From a phage: DNA of 64,000 nt. The position numbers were made by a program, and so were the translations under genes. The DNA is taken from sequence record PQ724393.1; one strand, 5' to 3'. Shown in pieces: positions 2,100-23,769 of the stretch. The notes under the pieces are model-generated. The model ran no database searches. It saw only the letters and a program-made list of their open reading frames with translations, and had not been told where the DNA came from. Positions within the stretch are counted from its first letter, which is position 1. Each line of letters starts with the position of its first letter.

Positions 2100-3118
2100 C
2101 GTGTAACCTCATTATAAAGTTGTGCAGCCATAGTCTTAAGGGCTTTAACATCGTCTTCAGTGTGGCCATCAGGAAGGGCATCGATATAGTCATACATCAT
2201 ATCCAAGAGGGACTTGACTTCATCCTCCTCTTCAGAATCATCGATATCAACACTATTATCTACCTTAGACACAATACGTAAAGAATGGACGACCTTTTCA
2301 AGCTCTGATTCGAACTTAGTAAGGCCGTCATCAATTTTATCGACTATAACACGAACTGCGATATTTGTAAAATCTTTGTAATCGATAGTCGCGTTAGGAT
2401 AATGAATCTTACGATGCCAACAGGTTTCATTAATGATGAAATCCATTTTATGAGTTTCGGTATCGAAAATCCAGAAACCACGAGGGTCGTTCTCATCACC
2501 TGCAGTCAGGGTCCATGGAGTACCAATGTACTTAACGTTTGCTGCATCAGAAATAGTGTGGAAGTGGCCTGACCAAACTTGCTTATACTTTTTAAGGAAA
2601 TCAGGTTCTAAACCATGGGATTTCATTCCTTTATAGAAATAGAAACCATTTAATTCCCAATGCCCAATACAGAAATCTGCTGTGGTATTTTTGATATGGT
2701 CCATGATATCGGTCGTGTTTTCTTCACACATCCATGGAATCAAATCAATTTCGGTGCCATCAAAGTTAACCGTAGTAGGTTTTTCAATAACCTTGATATG
2801 GTCATATTTACCCAGAACTTCAGAAGCAGCATTAGGAGTCAAGGTATTTTTGTAGTGCATATCATGATTACCAACAACGGTATACATGGTAATGCCATTA
2901 GCTTTAAGCAAATCAGAGATTTCGCGAGCGAATTCCATGCACTTGTGAGTAATTGCTTTACGAACATCAAAGATATCACCGTATTGAATCCATACAGTAA
3001 TGCCATTTGCTTTAGAATAATCAATAGCGTCTTGGATACCTTGACGTTGGATATTTTGTACCCACACATCATCAGCCTTAACTCCAAGGTGCCAGTCACC
3101 TGTGTTTAATATTTTCAT
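2096..3118 (-). CDS. 47: Recombination endonuclease subunit gp47 (Mre11-like phosphoesterase)
   Basis: MKILNTGDWHLGVK..., motifs GDWH, GDIFD, GNHD, GHFH typical of Mre11/SbcD; start set to ATG at 3116-3118 (the ORF-track start at 3145 is TTG). Confidence 0.9.
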   Translation of the reverse strand: MKILNTGDWHLGVKADDVWVQNIQRQGIQDAIDYSKANGITVWIQYGDIFDVRKAITHKCMEFAREISDLLKANGITMYTVVGNHDMHYKNTLTPNAASEVLGKYDHIKVIEKPTTVNFDGTEIDLIPWMCEENTTDIMDHIKNTTADFCIGHWELNGFYFYKGMKSHGLEPDFLKKYKQVWSGHFHTISDAANVKYIGTPWTLTAGDENDPRGFWIFDTETHKMDFIINETCWHRKIHYPNATIDYKDFTNIAVRVIVDKIDDGLTKFESELEKVVHSLRIVSKVDNSVDIDDSEEEDEVKSLLDMMYDYIDALPDGHTEDDVKALKTMAAQLYNEVTR

Positions 3119-3301
3119 AAGCCAAGCACCGTTATCGAAATACAAAATAAAATTATTGAAATGAACCCGTCAGAAGTGGAAAAGAATCCTATCCAACAAG
3201 CTCTTGTGAATGTGTAGAATGCCATGAATAACACGACATATCCTAAAAATAATTCCATATGTTCTCCTCAGTTGGTTCATTTTATCATCCCGAATATAAA
3301 G

Positions 3302-3326
3302 CAAAAAAGGAAGCCCTAGGCTTCCT
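3302..3326 (-). terminator. Rho-independent terminator (minus strand)
   Basis: Perfect inverted repeat GGAAGCC-CTA-GGCTTCC at 3309-3325 followed on the minus strand by a U6 run (plus-strand aaaaaa at 3303-3308). Confidence 0.6.
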
Positions 3327-3489
3327 TTCCAATTAATACGCCATACAGAGGTTCGTGATTAGACCTGAACTTGATAGGCTTATAGGTAATAGTACCTTCA
3401 TTTTCTGCTTTAATACGAGCGGCTTCAAATTGAAGTATCATCTCATTTTTGTCAGATTTAATCTTATCAAAATCCATCGAATTCGTCAT
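3316..3489 (-). CDS. Hypothetical small protein (57 aa)
   Basis: ATG at 3487-3489 preceded by AAGAGG 9 nt upstream; MTNSMDFDKIKSDKNEM...; stop lies inside the terminator stem; below the ORF-track length cutoff. Confidence 0.35.
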   Translation of the reverse strand: MTNSMDFDKIKSDKNEMILQFEAARIKAENEGTITYKPIKFRSNHEPLYGVLIGKEA

Positions 3490-3547
3490 TCATATAACCT
3501 CTTAAACTTTTTCGTATTCGTCATTCATTAGCCTGCAGTCCATGTTA

Positions 3548-3748
3548 TCATCTCTGCCACCACTTCTTAAGTTGATGAGAATCTACCCAAACCTTGGCTA
3601 CGGGCTCAATCTGAAAAATACCATCAGAATATCGGCCCATCATTTTGTATTCGGTTTCGGACTGCTTAATACAGATATTACCGTATGAGCGAAGTCTAAA
3701 GGCGGCTCCAATAAGAAGCCGTTTAAAGGGTTTATTTACCAGAGCCAT
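3548..3748 (-). CDS. Hypothetical protein (66 aa)
   Basis: ORF only; weak. Confidence 0.3.
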   Translation of the reverse strand: MALVNKPFKRLLIGAAFRLRSYGNICIKQSETEYKMMGRYSDGIFQIEPVAKVWVDSHQLKKWWQR

Positions 3749-4043
3749 TGACGATTTCCCAAATTTGTTTGCGGGTGGATTCCCACATCAATTGAACAAG
3801 TTCATCAGTAACAGGTTGACGGTAAATACCACGTAATTTAATTAAAGCGTACTTATATGCTTCAAAGTTGTTTTCAAGTACAGCGCCTTGGGCGTGGAGA
3901 TTTAAACGACGGATTTCACGAGCATTCTTCTTAAGAATCTTAGCCGCTTGAGAATTAGCTTCTTTAATATTGTGCTCTTCTAAACGTTGCTGGGCTTCTT
4001 CAATTTGCTCGTCAGTCAATTGAGAAATGTCATGGCTTTGCAT
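3732..4043 (-). CDS. Hypothetical protein (103 aa)
   Basis: ORF with ATG start; sits where T4 has 47.1/alpha-gt. Confidence 0.45.
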   Translation of the reverse strand: MQSHDISQLTDEQIEEAQQRLEEHNIKEANSQAAKILKKNAREIRRLNLHAQGAVLENNFEAYKYALIKLRGIYRQPVTDELVQLMWESTRKQIWEIVNGSGK

Positions 4044-4044
4044 A

Positions 4045-4311
4045 TTAATCCTTTGGAGTCAATTCGATAGTGAAGTAGAAATTAGCGTTCTCAACATGAT
4101 AACGATAATCTACGTTATTATCAGGAGAAGTGAATTCAATATTCCTGACGTTAAGTGGGTCAATATCAATAGGAAGGCCTTTAACATCCCGTAATATCAA
4201 TTTAATAAAATAAGGGAGTGCTTCGAAGTCTTCCATTCCATCTAAAAGTGGAGTGATATTAATCTGATGTTCCATATAAAAAATCCAGTTCGCCAACTTT
4301 AGGTTCGGCAC
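4045..4311 (-). CDS. Hypothetical protein (88 aa)
   Basis: ORF just downstream of gene 55; N-terminus overlaps the gene 55 3' end, so the true start may be internal. Confidence 0.4.
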
Positions 4312-4816
4312 TCTTATCAGACCCTGGTGCTTTAGTTAAAGAGGTTTCATACTGTGTCATTTTATCGTAGATATCTTGGATAAAGGTTTCATCTGCAATA
4401 CCTACCATATCGTCATCATTACTGTCATAGACATTATGGACGAAGTAGCTATATTTCTTTGCCATTTCTTTACGTTCTTTTTTGATACGCTGAACGAAGG
4501 CATTAAAACAAGCCATAGTGATATATGCATGTGGGTTGTCGTATTTTGTTTCGTCGAAGTTGTGAAGACCTTTAATCGAAGCTTCGATTCCATCAGCAAT
4601 CATTTCTTGCTTCCAGGATTGGGTATATCCGGAGAAGTTGAAACGCTTACTTAGTCCTTCAGCAATGAGCATAATAGCCAACCCTATAGTATCATTTTGT
4701 CTAATGATTTTATTAGGGTCGGTATTTTCTCTAAGCTCTGTTTTCCATTGGGTAATAGCTTTCAGAAGCTCCTTATTATTTACATAGTTATTTTTAGTCA
4801 GTTTAATTTCGGTCAT
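4259..4816 (-). CDS. 55: Late-transcription sigma factor gp55
   Basis: 185 aa, ...[11 protein letters not shown]...[49 protein letters not shown]... matches T4 gp55 closely; SD GAGGT upstream of ATG 4816. Confidence 0.9.
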
Positions 4817-19197: not shown

Positions 19198-19581
19198 TTA
19201 TTCTAACGTTAACAAATATTTAGTCTGGTAAAAGACCCCAGTGATATCGTCCAAAGTCGACTGGATGGCCTTAGGAAGGGTATCATAGATTTTATCAGAT
19301 GCTTTAAGAAGCTCGTCAAGGAAATCTACAGGGTCCTTAGGCAAGTCTGAAGCAGACGGTAATGATGCTTTATATTCTTTGCCACTGAATCCAAGATATT
19401 GCTCACTAAATTGGTCCAGCGGTCCTTGAACTTCTACATAATAGAAGTCATACGCTTTGTGTCTTGCATAGCTTTTGGTTTCTAAATGGGCTGACTTAAA
19501 ATAGGCTAAAGAAACCAGTAGCCAACCAATATAAGAATCCACTTCAGACCCTCGACCGGGTACGAAATCATTGAACTTCAT
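19198..19581 (-). CDS. Hypothetical protein (127 aa)
   Basis: ORF directly downstream of rI. Confidence 0.5.
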   Translation of the reverse strand: MKFNDFVPGRGSEVDSYIGWLLVSLAYFKSAHLETKSYARHKAYDFYYVEVQGPLDQFSEQYLGFSGKEYKASLPSASDLPKDPVDFLDELLKASDKIYDTLPKAIQSTLDDITGVFYQTKYLLTLE

Positions 19582-19861
19582 CTTCCACCTTCATTAGTTT
19601 TGCATAACGCTCTCCGATGGCACGACCCTCAATTGAGCACGCTTCTATAGTCCGACAACTTGATATCTTCCAAGAAGCCGTAACATAGGCCCAATAGTCT
19701 TCGGAGGCCTTTATGCTAGGTCTACTCATTTGCGCATAAACAGGCATCGCACTACTAGCAAATGCATCCATCAATTTATCGTGAGTATTATTTGCTAGTG
19801 AAACTGTAGGGCTTAAACATCCCGCCATAAGGATACAAGCCGCTGTACGGAAAATATCCAT
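19568..19861 (-). CDS. rI: Lysis-inhibition regulator RI-like periplasmic protein
   Basis: 97 aa, N-terminal signal-anchor, C-terminal CRTIEACSIEGRAIGERYAKLM resembles T4 RI; located next to tk as in T4. Confidence 0.65.
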   Translation of the reverse strand: MDIFRTAACILMAGCLSPTVSLANNTHDKLMDAFASSAMPVYAQMSRPSIKASEDYWAYVTASWKISSCRTIEACSIEGRAIGERYAKLMKVEDEVQ

Positions 19862-19953: not shown

Positions 19954-20232
19954 TTATAGCTTTTTAAGCTTACGACAATAAGAATAGAACACGTCGTTAA
20001 AATTATGCTCAACCCAATTCCTCTGTATAGGCGAGGTAATGGAAAGCATATAATGGGCTTTAATTAAATCCATCCCATTTTTATTAGGACATTCTTTATT
20101 ATTAGCATTATACGTCGCCGCTACAACCTCTATCTCTCTTTTGTAAGCCACATCATCCATGATAGGCGAAAGAACAATATAAGAAATAGCCACAGCGAAC
20201 GCTAGAATTAAAATCTTTGAATTTAGGTCCAT
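19954..20232 (-). CDS. Hypothetical signal-anchored protein (92 aa)
   Basis: N-terminal hydrophobic segment. Confidence 0.45.
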   Translation of the reverse strand: MDLNSKILILAFAVAISYIVLSPIMDDVAYKREIEVVAATYNANNKECPNKNGMDLIKAHYMLSITSPIQRNWVEHNFNDVFYSYCRKLKKL

Positions 20233-20239
20233 AGTACCC

Positions 20240-20812
20240 TCAACTCGTTATTTCTATCCAGTGCTTCCTGCACAATGACACGTAAGAATCGTTGCCACCT
20301 ATAGAAACTTGGGCTCCGTCCTTAATTGCGACACCATCTTGGACCCTAGCAGTCATAGTAGCTTTACGGCCGCAATGGCACACACCTTTGTACTCAACGA
20401 GCTTATCTGCTGTAGCGAGTAATTCAGCAGAGCCAGGAAACAGTTTACCCTGAAAATCAGTTCTTAGTCCATAACACATAACTGGAACATTATAATTGTC
20501 TACTATCTTCGCCAGTTGTTTTATCTGTGCAGGTTCTAAGAACTGTGCTTCATCCACAAATACGCAGTGGATATCTTTTTGAGATTCAGCCCAACGATAG
20601 AACTCGTATAGGTCCATATCCGGAGTCACTGCATTAGCCTCTTGACTAATCCCTATACGAGACGAAATGGTATGGCTTGATTCTCTATTGTCTATCGCAG
20701 GCTTTAAAAGGAGTACGCCCATACCACGTTCTTTGTAGTTATGAGCTGCCGTTAGCAATGAAGCTGTCTTACCTGAGTTCATTGCCGCATAGTGAAACAT
20801 CAAACTTGCCAT
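20240..20812 (-). CDS. tk: Thymidine kinase
   Basis: 190 aa, P-loop NSGKTASLL, VDEAQF, zinc ribbon CHCG...SLCRKHW; very similar to T4 Tk. Confidence 0.9.
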   Translation of the reverse strand: MASLMFHYAAMNSGKTASLLTAAHNYKERGMGVLLLKPAIDNRESSHTISSRIGISQEANAVTPDMDLYEFYRWAESQKDIHCVFVDEAQFLEPAQIKQLAKIVDNYNVPVMCYGLRTDFQGKLFPGSAELLATADKLVEYKGVCHCGRKATMTARVQDGVAIKDGAQVSIGGNDSYVSLCRKHWIEITS

Positions 20813-21201: not shown

Positions 21202-21425
21202 TTAGGTTCACCATATCGCACAAATTTAGGATGTTCGCAATAACCGGAATGAAAACCTTCACCCTTATGATTAGAACATCCTTTATTAGAACAGTACCAC
21301 CAGTAATCATATTCGCAATTCATTTCATCATTGCATAAAGCTGCGATTACCGGCCATTCACATTTTTCACATTTAGCCGTTTTAAGAATTCTAGCTTGGC
21401 TCATAACCATTGCACCTTTAAGCAA
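21198..21425 (-). CDS. Hypothetical Cys-rich protein (75 aa)
   Basis: Multiple Cys pairs suggest Zn binding. Confidence 0.4.
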   Translation of the reverse strand: MLKGAMVMSQARILKTAKCEKCEWPVIAALCNDEMNCEYDYWWYCSNKGCSNHKGEGFHSGYCEHPKFVRYGEPK

Positions 21426-21613
21426 TATTCTTCTACATGCTGTTTACGTTTATTTTTATCTATAAAAGTATATTCAACATATTCACCGATATACCATTTA
21501 TCAGTGTTGTGTTGACTTTTTATAGGGCATTTAGTTACTCGGGTTTCGGTCCAGCGCCGAATAATTTCAGCTTTATTTTTAGGGTCAAACGGATGCGGGT
21601 AATGTGCTTTCAT
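21401..21613 (-). CDS. Hypothetical protein (70 aa)
   Basis: ORF. Confidence 0.4.
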   Translation of the reverse strand: MKAHYPHPFDPKNKAEIIRRWTETRVTKCPIKSQHNTDKWYIGEYVEYTFIDKNKRKQHVEEYCLKVQWL

Positions 21614-22064
21614 AATCCACCACTATTAAATCAATATCAGGGGTAAACATGTCGATTAATTTAGAAACCTTTTCCCAATCACCGCCAGCAATACCACAAC
21701 CGATGCGAGGAATATAAATTCTTGGTTTAAACAAAAGGGTTTCTGCTTGTAGATTTAATTCTATCATACAGTTTACTAAAGCACCGTAATCAAGATTAGG
21801 GCCGGGTTCGTATTGGGTGTATAAATTATAGCACATTGCAAATCCATTAGGCTTATGTTTAAAAACAATAGACATATCGCCTAATTTATCACGAGAACCG
21901 TATTCAGTAGTGGTCTTATCAATTTCTAAGATTTTAGGATAGGCTCTTGCTAATTGACCGGCCACGCCTGAACCCATAGTATGAAAACAGTTGCACCCAT
22001 GTGCAATAATATTACCTTGGAGAAACAGGGCGACGATATCGCCCTTAATATAATCAATAATCAT
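21585..22064 (-). CDS. Macro-domain protein (ADP-ribose binding/processing)
   Basis: 159 aa; GDIVALFLQGNIIAHGCNCFHTMGSGVAGQLA matches the macrodomain GDIt...NAAN...GGGV signature. Confidence 0.55.
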   Translation of the reverse strand: MIIDYIKGDIVALFLQGNIIAHGCNCFHTMGSGVAGQLARAYPKILEIDKTTTEYGSRDKLGDMSIVFKHKPNGFAMCYNLYTQYEPGPNLDYGALVNCMIELNLQAETLLFKPRIYIPRIGCGIAGGDWEKVSKLIDMFTPDIDLIVVDYESTLPASV

Positions 22065-22417
22065 TTAGAGTTTAATCCTCGGTTGTAGGAGTCAACGAGT
22101 CTGTCTACCATAGACGCGCACATTTCTTTGTACTTTTTATCAGACGGAACACATTCAGTAACGTTTAGACGTTGCTCGTATCTTTTAGAAAGAGTTTTCT
22201 CTTTCATTCGGCGATGCTCGACGTCGTTCTGTCCATCTTTAAAAGCAGCTGTTATTTTTGAACTGAATTCAATAACGCATTCAGTATTACTCGGATGACA
22301 ATAATCTTTTGCTGTACGGGTGGCATACTCAACAATTGAATTATTTGTATCATCAACTTGTGACGCTAATACTCCCGGAGCAATCAACATAAGCGCTATA
22401 GTCATCTGCTTAATCAT
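22061..22417 (-). CDS. Hypothetical secreted protein (118 aa)
   Basis: N-terminal signal peptide MIKQMTIALMLIAPGVLASQ. Confidence 0.45.
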   Translation of the reverse strand: MIKQMTIALMLIAPGVLASQVDDTNNSIVEYATRTAKDYCHPSNTECVIEFSSKITAAFKDGQNDVEHRRMKEKTLSKRYEQRLNVTECVPSDKKYKEMCASMVDRLVDSYNRGLNSK

Positions 22418-22957
22418 TTAATACACCGCCTCAAACATCTTTTTAGATTTTAGATAATTGGCCTTTTCTAGAACTTCAGAAGCATATTTACTGCCTGCTT
22501 TGACGTCCCAGCCCGCATTATAAGAAGCAATCGCTTTTCTCAGGTCACCTTTGTGAACATCAATCCAATAAGACAGTTCAATGTAGGCCCAAGAGGCACT
22601 GTTCTGTCGTTTTTGGACCATACGAATTATTTCTTTGTCTGACATCTTCCAACCTACCTGTTGAACACGACTTCTTAACGTAGGCAAGTAATTTTGGAAC
22701 ATGCCATAAGCATGGTGCTTATCTTTATTTAAACCCTGATTAATTCCGGCGGATGATTCCTGCCATAGTAATCCGGCCATGATATATCCTAATCCTTTTT
22801 GATTAGGGTTTTCTTTGAACTTTCCCGACTTTTGGTATTGTTCACCGAAAGCATACGCATAATGCAAATTGTCGAGTTGCTCACTGTTGAAAGTAGGCTC
22901 TACGCTATAGGCAGACATACTAACTGTCAATAGTAAAGTGGCTAATACTTTTTTCAT
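22418..22957 (-). CDS. Periplasmic lytic-transglycosylase-like (SLT-domain) protein
   Basis: 179 aa, signal peptide MKKVLATLLLTVSMSAYS, motifs LLWQESS, YGMFQ, YNAG reminiscent of SLT family. Confidence 0.5.
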   Translation of the reverse strand: MKKVLATLLLTVSMSAYSVEPTFNSEQLDNLHYAYAFGEQYQKSGKFKENPNQKGLGYIMAGLLWQESSAGINQGLNKDKHHAYGMFQNYLPTLRSRVQQVGWKMSDKEIIRMVQKRQNSASWAYIELSYWIDVHKGDLRKAIASYNAGWDVKAGSKYASEVLEKANYLKSKKMFEAVY

Positions 22958-22969
22958 GAGACCTCATTA

Positions 22970-23429
22970 TTAAAGATAGATTACTTTCGTGCTGGTTTTA
23001 CCTTCTAAACGTTTAGAGTTAACAAATGCCATACGACATTTTAATGAATATCCTTTATCAGGATGTTTACGATCTACGGTCATACCCAACCATAAGGTTT
23101 TATCAGTAATCTCGAGACGCAGCGGACGATACACTTTACCTGGGACAATTTCAGATTCTATGTCAGGAAGAGGCTCCTGGATTAAAAATTCATGGATTTC
23201 TTTAACATGGTTATGGAGTTGCTTGAATAAAGCAAAAACGTATTTTTCGTCAATTTCACGTTGGATAGCACGGTCCAACAAGTGATTAGAGTACTTAATA
23301 AAGAAAGCTGGGACCCCGCTCTTGATGGCGGCTTTTTTGATGGACGCGTTAAGTTCACGAAATTCGGTTTCGAACTGACGACGTAATTTGTTGCGGCGGA
23401 TGAATACTTCTGAATTAATTTCTGACATT
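22970..23429 (-). CDS. regB: Endoribonuclease RegB
   Basis: 153 aa from ATG 23427-23429 (MSEINSEVFIRRNKLRR...HLLDRAIQREIDEKYVF...); strongly resembles T4 RegB; ORF-track N-terminal extension rejected. Confidence 0.85.
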
Positions 23430-23486
23430 TTGTAATCTCCTGTAGTTGATAGGTCTATAGTATCATGTCTACAGGAGATGTAAACT
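23430..23486 (-). promoter_or_regulatory. Early promoter / stem-loop cassette
   Basis: GTTTACA-N17-TACTAT; perfect stem CTCCTGTAG/CTACAGGAG with SD in 3' arm; identical to copy at 25766-25822. Confidence 0.6.
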
Positions 23487-23490
23487 GCTT

Positions 23491-23769
23491 TTAGTATTTT
23501 TCCTCGGGTTGGAAAACAGAACGACAGGCCCACATGGATGCTTCTTTCAAGCGTTCGATTGCCGTACGAATCTGGGTAATGCGTTCATGAGCCTGGTCTA
23601 GTTCTTGTTCAGAAACCTCTTCGGCATCTAAGTTCATATAATAGGTAACATGTTCTTCTTCTAATGCTTTAAAGATTAAGCCTAATCGAACTTCAGCATC
23701 TTTAATGGCATTCACTTTACTGATTTTATCGTCGGTATGTGACTTGTAACCTTTGATATCTTCAATCAT
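23491..23769 (-). CDS. Hypothetical protein (92 aa)
   Basis: ORF; helical. Confidence 0.4.
   Translation of the reverse strand: MIEDIKGYKSHTDDKISKVNAIKDAEVRLGLIFKALEEEHVTYYMNLDAEEVSEQELDQAHERITQIRTAIERLKEASMWACRSVFQPEEKY

Follow-up and report, generated by a model that had tools for sequence, protein, structure and literature searches.

The tk.4, vs and vs.1 genes of a Dhakavirus-like T4-type phage: an AdfM-type macrodomain protein next to two predicted exported proteins

Background

Among the early genes of T4-type phages, similarities to the macro and SLT domains were already published in 2006 and, for SLT, were noted in six vs.1 orthologues with E-values from 0.012 to 0.74 (Nolan et al. 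2006, PMC1524935). The role of the macrodomain gene tk.4 against the host DarTG2 defence was reported in 2025: in a T4 transposon library on a DarTG2 host, tk.4 was the sole significant hit, a clean T4 tk.4 knockout was DarTG2-sensitive, and the gene was renamed adfM (bioRxiv 10.1101/2025.11.20.689424). A macrodomain of phage PhiKZ, which likewise bears the name AdfM, strips DarT2-modified DNA of its ADP-ribose in vitro, an activity that requires a conserved Asn (2026 Cell Reports, PMC13309987). Here, we describe the corresponding locus, made of the genes tk.4, vs and vs.1, at positions 21585-22957 (minus strand) of a stretch of 64,000 nucleotides of phage DNA (sequence record PQ724393.1, hereafter the window, i.e., the whole stretch that was analysed).

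The gene placed between the other two, vs, is annotated as the valyl-tRNA synthetase (ValRS) modifier, a label that rests on Muller and Marchin 1975/1977, as far as these are cited in PMC8076793. N-terminally His-tagged full-length T4 Vs was insoluble in the E. coli cytoplasm (PMC8076793), and a T4 vs knockout showed poor plating on minimal medium only (bioRxiv 10.1101/2025.11.20.689424). For the T4 orthologues of tk.4, vs and vs.1, early RNA as well as the proteins have been detected (PMC9697503 supplement).

Results

Sequence comparison identifies the locus as the three known early genes tk.4, vs and vs.1 of a Dhakavirus (JS98-like) T4-type phage. At the DNA level, the locus shares 96% identity with dhaeg and JS98, two Dhakavirus phages whose records carry annotations for tk, tk.4, vs, vs.1 and regB, and the gene content itself is already known, tk.4, vs and vs.1 being annotated at 94–98% identity in JS98, JS10, Bp7 and many others. 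A preliminary description of the window, made from its letters alone, had placed a macro-domain protein and two signal-peptide proteins between tk and regB, and the interval indeed consists of exactly three minus-strand open reading frames (ORFs) of 159, 118 and 179 codons that fill it completely, with all the motifs quoted there (GDI, IAHGCN and GSGVAG; ES, YGMFQ and YNAG) present. When compared to the T4 proteins, Tk.4 is 56% (without gaps), Vs 45% and Vs.1 65% identical, and the gene order regB-vs.1-vs-tk.4 is that of T4. These identities to T4 and Dhakavirus genes, combined with the expression reported in T4, argue that the three ORFs are genuine genes and not chance occurrences. The genes are tightly packed, with an ATGA overlap at the vs/tk.4 junction, a TAAATG at the vs.1/vs junction (where the vs.1 stop abuts the vs ATG), and a GAGG-type ribosome-binding site ahead of each of the three starts. 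A promoter and terminator scan gave no more sites than in shuffled sequence, and therefore no conclusion about transcription units was drawn from it.

The tk.4 orthologue (21585..22064, minus strand) would encode a cytoplasmic protein of 159 aa, which its sequence assigns to the macrodomains as the orthologue of T4 Tk.4/AdfM. The macro-domain claim of the preliminary description withstood the profile search proposed there as a check, since Tk.4 passes the Pfam Macro model (PF01661) with 33.4 bits against a cut-off of 22 (E = 5e-8, profile positions 2–117 of 118); it also matches phrog_335 (E = 1e-70). The motifs G8-D-I, I20-A-H-G-C-N25 and G31-S-G-V-A-G36 include an ADP-ribose-binding loop (G31-S-G33-V-A, with H22-G-C-N25 upstream), and the residues G8, H22, G23, N25, G33, A35, T83, Q84, P119, G122, G124 and W130 are invariant in 27 Tk.4 sequences. 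Against the PDB, the profile of this family (27 members) matched BT1257 (7e-20), TARG1 (4e-18), SCO6735 (1e-15) and Poa1p (6e-15), as well as the DarG macrodomains of M. tuberculosis and T. aquaticus (6e-11 and 2e-9). The top NCBIfam match is the macro part of the antitoxin DarG (NF048014, E = 1e-6), of which Tk.4 covers positions 1–142 of 338 with 28 bits against a cut-off of 250, thus far below threshold because the DarT-binding half is missing. Alignment to the TARG1 chains of the PDB indicated that the catalytic pair of TARG1 is absent from Tk.4, K84 being replaced by a family-invariant Q84 and D125 by A125, and the same N...Q arrangement is found in the Tk.4 family and in BT1257. The likelier active-site residues, as judged from the alignments, would be H22, N25 and G33. 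No darT was found beside tk.4, whose neighbours are vs and a DUF7202 gene.

By analogy with the T4 and PhiKZ proteins, we infer both the anti-DarTG2 role and the de-ADP-ribosylation chemistry of the window protein itself. Tk.4 would bind ADP-ribose via the G31-x-G33 loop together with H22/N25, and would hydrolyse the ADP-ribose that host DarT2 attaches to thymidines when the phage DNA is single-stranded; it would thereby amount to an orphan DarG antitoxin, cytoplasmic and single-domain, within the BT1257/TARG1/DarG branch. The earlier suggestion that the macrodomain counters a host ADP-ribosylating defence is true for the T4 orthologue, whose knockout sensitises the phage to DarTG2 (10.1101/2025.11.20.689424).

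The comparison with slur11 (a Tequatrovirus, LN881734) revealed a mosaic, in which regB, vs.1, vs and tk are 97–100% identical to T4, whereas Tk.4 (locus L009, positions 2001-2480) is 95% identical to the window Tk.4 and 56% identical to T4 Tk.4. This mosaic suggests that tk.4 is a horizontally exchanged cassette, in agreement with the record counts, i.e., 309 phage records with window-type Tk.4 at an identity of at least 90% versus ~50 records with Vs at an identity of at least 95%. No macro gene was found after vs in Acinetobacter-type loci, and this absence, combined with the cassette exchange, argues that the macro gene is independent of vs and vs.1.

The vs.1 orthologue (22418..22957, minus strand) encodes a 179-aa GH23/SLT-like protein, similar to family 1 lytic transglycosylases and predicted to be exported. 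It displays the four signatures of this family (W65-Q-E67-S-S69, G85-M-F-Q88-N89, S145-Y-N-A-G149 and Y158), so that a putative catalytic Glu is found together with the GH23 motifs; the codon of this Glu67 (in WQESS), the predicted catalytic acid, was read from the DNA sequence at 22757..22759 (minus strand). Among 36 Vs.1 sequences, with identity down to 41%, the residues W65, E67, S69, G85, Q88, Y146, N147, G149 and Y158 show no variation, which speaks for a catalytic function that has been kept, and 31 of these 36 relatives match SLT at E ≤ 0.01, the best at 1.3e-7. Sequence searches against the PDB returned nothing for the single Vs.1 and chance-level matches only for the family profile, and a comparison of folds was therefore needed. 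The AlphaFold model is confident (pLDDT 87) and displays a goose-lysozyme-like fold, compatible with a lytic transglycosylase, a g-type lysozyme or a GH23 chitinase alike. No NCBIfam model matched Vs or Vs.1. Invariant motifs, fold and matching relatives, together with the signal-like N-terminus described next, uphold the initial view of a signal-peptide protein with SLT-like character.

Signal peptides were sought as a K/R n-region, a hydrophobic core of ~10–12 residues and small residues at −3/−1. In Vs.1, the predicted Sec signal peptide spans residues 1–18 (MKKVLATLLLTVSMSAYS, followed by VE; 22904..22957, minus strand), with KK in the n-region, a hydrophobic core, A-Y-S at −3 to −1 and no lipobox cysteine, and the same architecture is found in 36/36 relatives. 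We thus predict that Vs.1 is a GH23 enzyme that leaves the cytoplasm in soluble form, with lytic transglycosylase activity as the most likely one. It would pass the Sec pathway, lose its 18-residue signal peptide and act as a soluble protein in the periplasm, where it would cut the glycan strands of peptidoglycan early in infection, with Glu67 as single catalytic acid; given its own cleavable-type signal peptide, it would need no holin. Export, activity and biological purpose are all proposed here from such features. A reading of Vs.1 as a SAR endolysin was also considered and was ruled out by the normal, strongly hydrophobic core, the A-x-S cleavage-type site and the early gene.

The Vs.1 family counts 2,072 phage records and extends past the T4-like phages to Ounavirinae and Ackermannviridae. 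In the Ounavirinae, the homologue CHB7 gp134 (locus L007, positions 1290-1841) adjoins rIIB and lies a few genes from the spanins (Felix-O1-like), and in the Ackermannviridae a homologue was found as gp092 of Salmonella phage SP1 (locus L008, positions 2456-3073). Both CHB7 gp134 and SP1 gp092 retain the signal peptide and the catalytic motifs.

The third protein (vs, 22061..22417, minus strand; 118 aa, small and helical, with four invariant cysteines) is assigned by sequence as the orthologue of T4 Vs, with a match to phrog_1256 at E = 4e-34 and homologues tagged PF26829. The preliminary description had listed it as a secreted 118-aa protein, which agrees with a Sec-type N-terminus under our rule-based assessment, and had missed its identity as Vs. 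The predicted Sec signal peptide covers residues 1–18 (MIKQMTIALMLIAPGVLA, followed by SQ; 22364..22417, minus strand), with K in the n-region, a hydrophobic core and V-L-A at −3 to −1. A Sec-type N-terminus occurs in 21 of 23 Vs relatives, the other two being N-terminally truncated, and its sequence drifts while its character stays. Four cysteines are likewise conserved without exception in the family, as is a C-terminal SMVDRLxDxYxRGL, and both the signal and the four cysteines are found in divergent Vs proteins from RB49, an Acinetobacter phage, a Klebsiella phage and two metagenomic phages. In the model of Vs (pLDDT 74), the helices form a small bundle, for which no informative structural neighbour was found. 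When the Vs profile was compared to 1.84 billion cluster representatives, 8 matches were obtained, with no cellular relatives and no informative fusions, and on these searches the family appears confined to T4-type phages. In one protein of 3694 aa (P0249), 17 separate stretches match Vs profile positions 17–54 (E = 4e-9), which probably reflects a cysteine-containing repeat and not true homology.

The conserved signal peptide and the vs start abutting the vs.1 stop suggest that Vs is co-made with Vs.1 and exported, and Vs would then reach the periplasm too. The predicted mature T4 Vs is ~11.0–11.1 kDa, versus 13.1 kDa at full length. The purified Vs factor is reportedly roughly 10 kDa, a size matched by the predicted mature form, which would speak for export.

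As regards the linkage of the three genes, vs directly follows vs.1 in T4, the window, RB49 and Acinetobacter-type phages, and the order vs.1-vs-tk.4 is common to the window, T4 and RB49. The coupling of vs.1 and vs is positional and not obligatory: in a Klebsiella phage, two unrelated genes intervene between them, and no Vs was found within 2.5 kb on either side of Vs.1 in an Aeromonas phage, a Vibrio phage and the Ounavirinae and Ackermannviridae examples. In Aeromonas phage AS-gz (locus L011, positions 2498-4339), regB and vs.1 precede a 75-aa ORF, a 146-aa lipoprotein-like ORF (MKKTIAALFALSVYG, followed by C) and then a Tk.4 homologue; no Vs was detected there, and its slot may be filled by some other exported protein. 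Nothing was found that links the macro gene functionally to the two predicted exported proteins.

In three Acinetobacter-type loci (L003, 4001-5811; L006, 4001-5847; L012, 2474-4320), the order is vs.1, vs, phrog_4957, phrog_6298 and rI, and each of the five products carries a signal peptide or membrane segment at its N-terminus, so that this run looks like a compact envelope-targeted gene set from its predicted products. The same run is split in T4 and in the window by the inserted tk and tk.1-tk.4, and vs.1 and rI (19568-19861 in the window, on the tk side) are thus closer to each other in these distant phages than in the window. Between rI and tk, the window has a 92-aa ORF (19954-20232, minus strand) at the position of T4 rI.1, which belongs to phrog_6298 and has an N-terminal membrane segment. 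A relation of the peptidoglycan enzyme to lysis timing or superinfection signalling had been proposed earlier from its vicinity to rI; the proximity is real, the gene neighbourhood is the sole basis of the proposal, and our literature search found no paper linking vs.1 with lysis inhibition.

The locus is flanked by regB (22970..23428, minus strand; Pfam REGB_T4, E = 1e-68), upstream in the direction of transcription, and by the thymidine kinase gene tk (20240..20812, minus strand; Pfam TK, E = 1e-56) downstream. Between tk.4 and tk are the DUF7202 gene, a phage zinc-binding-domain gene and two 61-codon ORFs. The start of the DUF7202 gene (21401-21613) overlaps the 3′ end of tk.4 by 29 bases (21585-21613, minus strand) in a different frame. 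For regB, the listed ORF (22970-23533, minus strand) begins at a GTG that probably lies 35 codons too far upstream; the match to the Pfam RegB profile sets in at residue 39, and with the ATG at 23428 RegB has the 152 aa seen in relatives. It should be noticed that mislabels recur in GenBank (slur11, mobillu, Phaginator, phiEa104, selz and CLB_P2 among the examples): vs.1 homologues are called ‘endoribonuclease’ or ‘RegB’, apparently from the neighbouring gene, and vs is called ‘valyl-tRNA synthetase’ instead of its modifier.

Discussion

Altogether, we consider it probable that Tk.4 is an anti-DarT2 macrodomain, that Vs.1 is a periplasmic GH23 enzyme, that Vs is exported and that the three are separate genes. 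On this reading, tk.4, vs and vs.1 would be early genes that lie side by side but act separately, with transcription running leftward, from the regB side to the tk side. Several points count against it. The window Vs.1 alone scores 15 bits against the cut-off of 21.3 of Pfam SLT (PF01464), a sub-threshold match (E = 0.018), so that the SLT profile search suggested in the preliminary description came out in favour of the assignment for the relatives and fell short for the protein itself; the Foldseek E-values are also weak (0.03), and the signal peptides were judged by simple hydropathy and the −3/−1 rule. For Tk.4, the absence of the TARG1 Lys/Asp pair means that its chemistry is not simply transferable from TARG1, and the presence of Poa1p, an ADP-ribose-1''-phosphate phosphatase, among its closest relatives makes a small-molecule substrate possible. 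For Vs, a location in the periplasm is at odds with the binding reported for ValRS, a cytoplasmic enzyme; nor does it sit easily with the defect on minimal medium of the T4 vs knockout, which is more naturally explained by an effect on translation.

Some of these points lead directly to other explanations. Tk.4 could serve the ADP-ribose housekeeping of the phage, either by reversing the Alt/ModA/ModB protein modification or by clearing ADP-ribose-1''-phosphate or O-acetyl-ADP-ribose, as would fit the historic A1pp-phosphatase annotation, the place of Poa1p among the best solved relatives and the missing catalytic Lys and Asp of TARG1; we regard this as unlikely, given that T4 tk.4 was the lone significant DarTG2 hit with a clean knockout in confirmation (10.1101/2025.11.20.689424), that DarG is the best NCBIfam match and that cassette-like allele exchange is typical of arms-race genes. 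In the same way, the weak profile scores of Vs.1, which reflect a strong divergence from the cellular SLT family, and the ‘putative lysin’ annotation of some homologues would be compatible with an inactive peptidoglycan-binding protein or with an accessory lysin acting at lysis only. The invariance of the catalytic Glu and of all four family 1 motifs in 36 sequences, the early RNA in T4, the cleavable-type signal that would make a holin unnecessary and the separate T4 e-type lysozyme of this phage speak against these variants, and they appear improbable when compared to an active, early periplasmic enzyme. The tight packing with overlapping stop and start codons and the vs.1-vs-tk.4 order shared with T4 and RB49 might further suggest that the three genes work as a single unit, the macrodomain acting on the two predicted exported proteins or together with them. 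However, Tk.4 has no signal peptide, it was swapped independently of its neighbours in slur11 and is missing after vs in Acinetobacter-type phages, vs.1 and vs are separated in the Klebsiella phage, and in Ounavirinae and Ackermannviridae Vs.1 has neither Vs nor Tk.4 as a neighbour. A single three-gene system was rejected on this mosaic and synteny evidence, and we leave it hardly any probability.

The case of Vs is more balanced, as its predicted export fits poorly with a cytoplasmic ValRS target. A serious contender, to which we give somewhat less than an even chance, is that Vs is cytoplasmic as annotated and binds host ValRS, its N-terminus being no working export signal or leading to partial export. 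The long-standing annotation and the knockout defect restricted to minimal medium, which fits a role related to translation or amino acids, are in favour of such a location; the signal architecture and four cysteines kept in every full-length homologue examined, as well as the place of the gene in Acinetobacter-type phages, where it belongs to a series encoding exported or membrane proteins with rI as the last member, argue for export instead. A more specific proposal, which we find conceivable but rather doubtful, is that Vs is a disulfide-bonded periplasmic protein, co-translated and working with Vs.1 (e.g., as its regulator or partner), within an envelope set that includes rI and the gene at the rI.1 position, its association with ValRS being indirect or post-lysis. 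The 50-year-old ValRS label is thus attached to a family with the appearance of exported proteins and a coupling to a predicted periplasmic peptidoglycan enzyme. A resolution of this paradox would mean either a corrected textbook annotation or a protein with an unusual dual localisation, and could give Vs.1 its first function.

Beyond the gene content, two tk.4 alleles (56% identical) moving among Tevenvirinae form the pattern expected of an arms race with DarT2 variants, and a phage macrodomain devoid of the TARG1 Lys/Asp pair requires its own explanation for chemistry on ADP-ribosyl-thymidine. For Vs.1, our analysis adds fold-level support and the reach of the family to Ounavirinae and Ackermannviridae.

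When compared to known systems, window Tk.4 resembles T4 Tk.4 (AdfM) by 56% full-length identity, a single macro domain and a location with vs on one side and the small tk.x genes on the other, and differs in being the other type of allele (~56% identical to T4 versus 95% to slur11 and like Tequatroviruses). With DarG (PDB 5M3I, 5M31) and human TARG1/OARD1 (4J5R), it shares the branch and the elements G-D, A-H, G-x-G and P-R-I-G-C-G; unlike DarG, the 159-aa Tk.4 has no C-terminal DarT-binding domain. The likeness to BT1257 (2FG1, of uncharacterised function) extends to the lack of the TARG1-type K84/D125. Vs, 45% identical to T4 Vs, agrees with it in length, in the four cysteines and in the C-terminal motif, and nothing separates the two. 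Similarly, Vs.1 shows no substantive difference from T4 Vs.1, with 65% identity, a location after regB in both phages and a marginal SLT match in either case. The family 1 lytic transglycosylases and GH23 enzymes used for comparison were Slt70, MltE and MltC of E. coli, Slt, MltF and MltD of P. aeruginosa, and EtgA; in contrast to these, Vs.1 is a minimal single domain of ~160 residues, encoded early by a virulent phage, with a cleavable-type signal and no lipobox, and it remains only marginally similar in sequence to the cellular SLT family.

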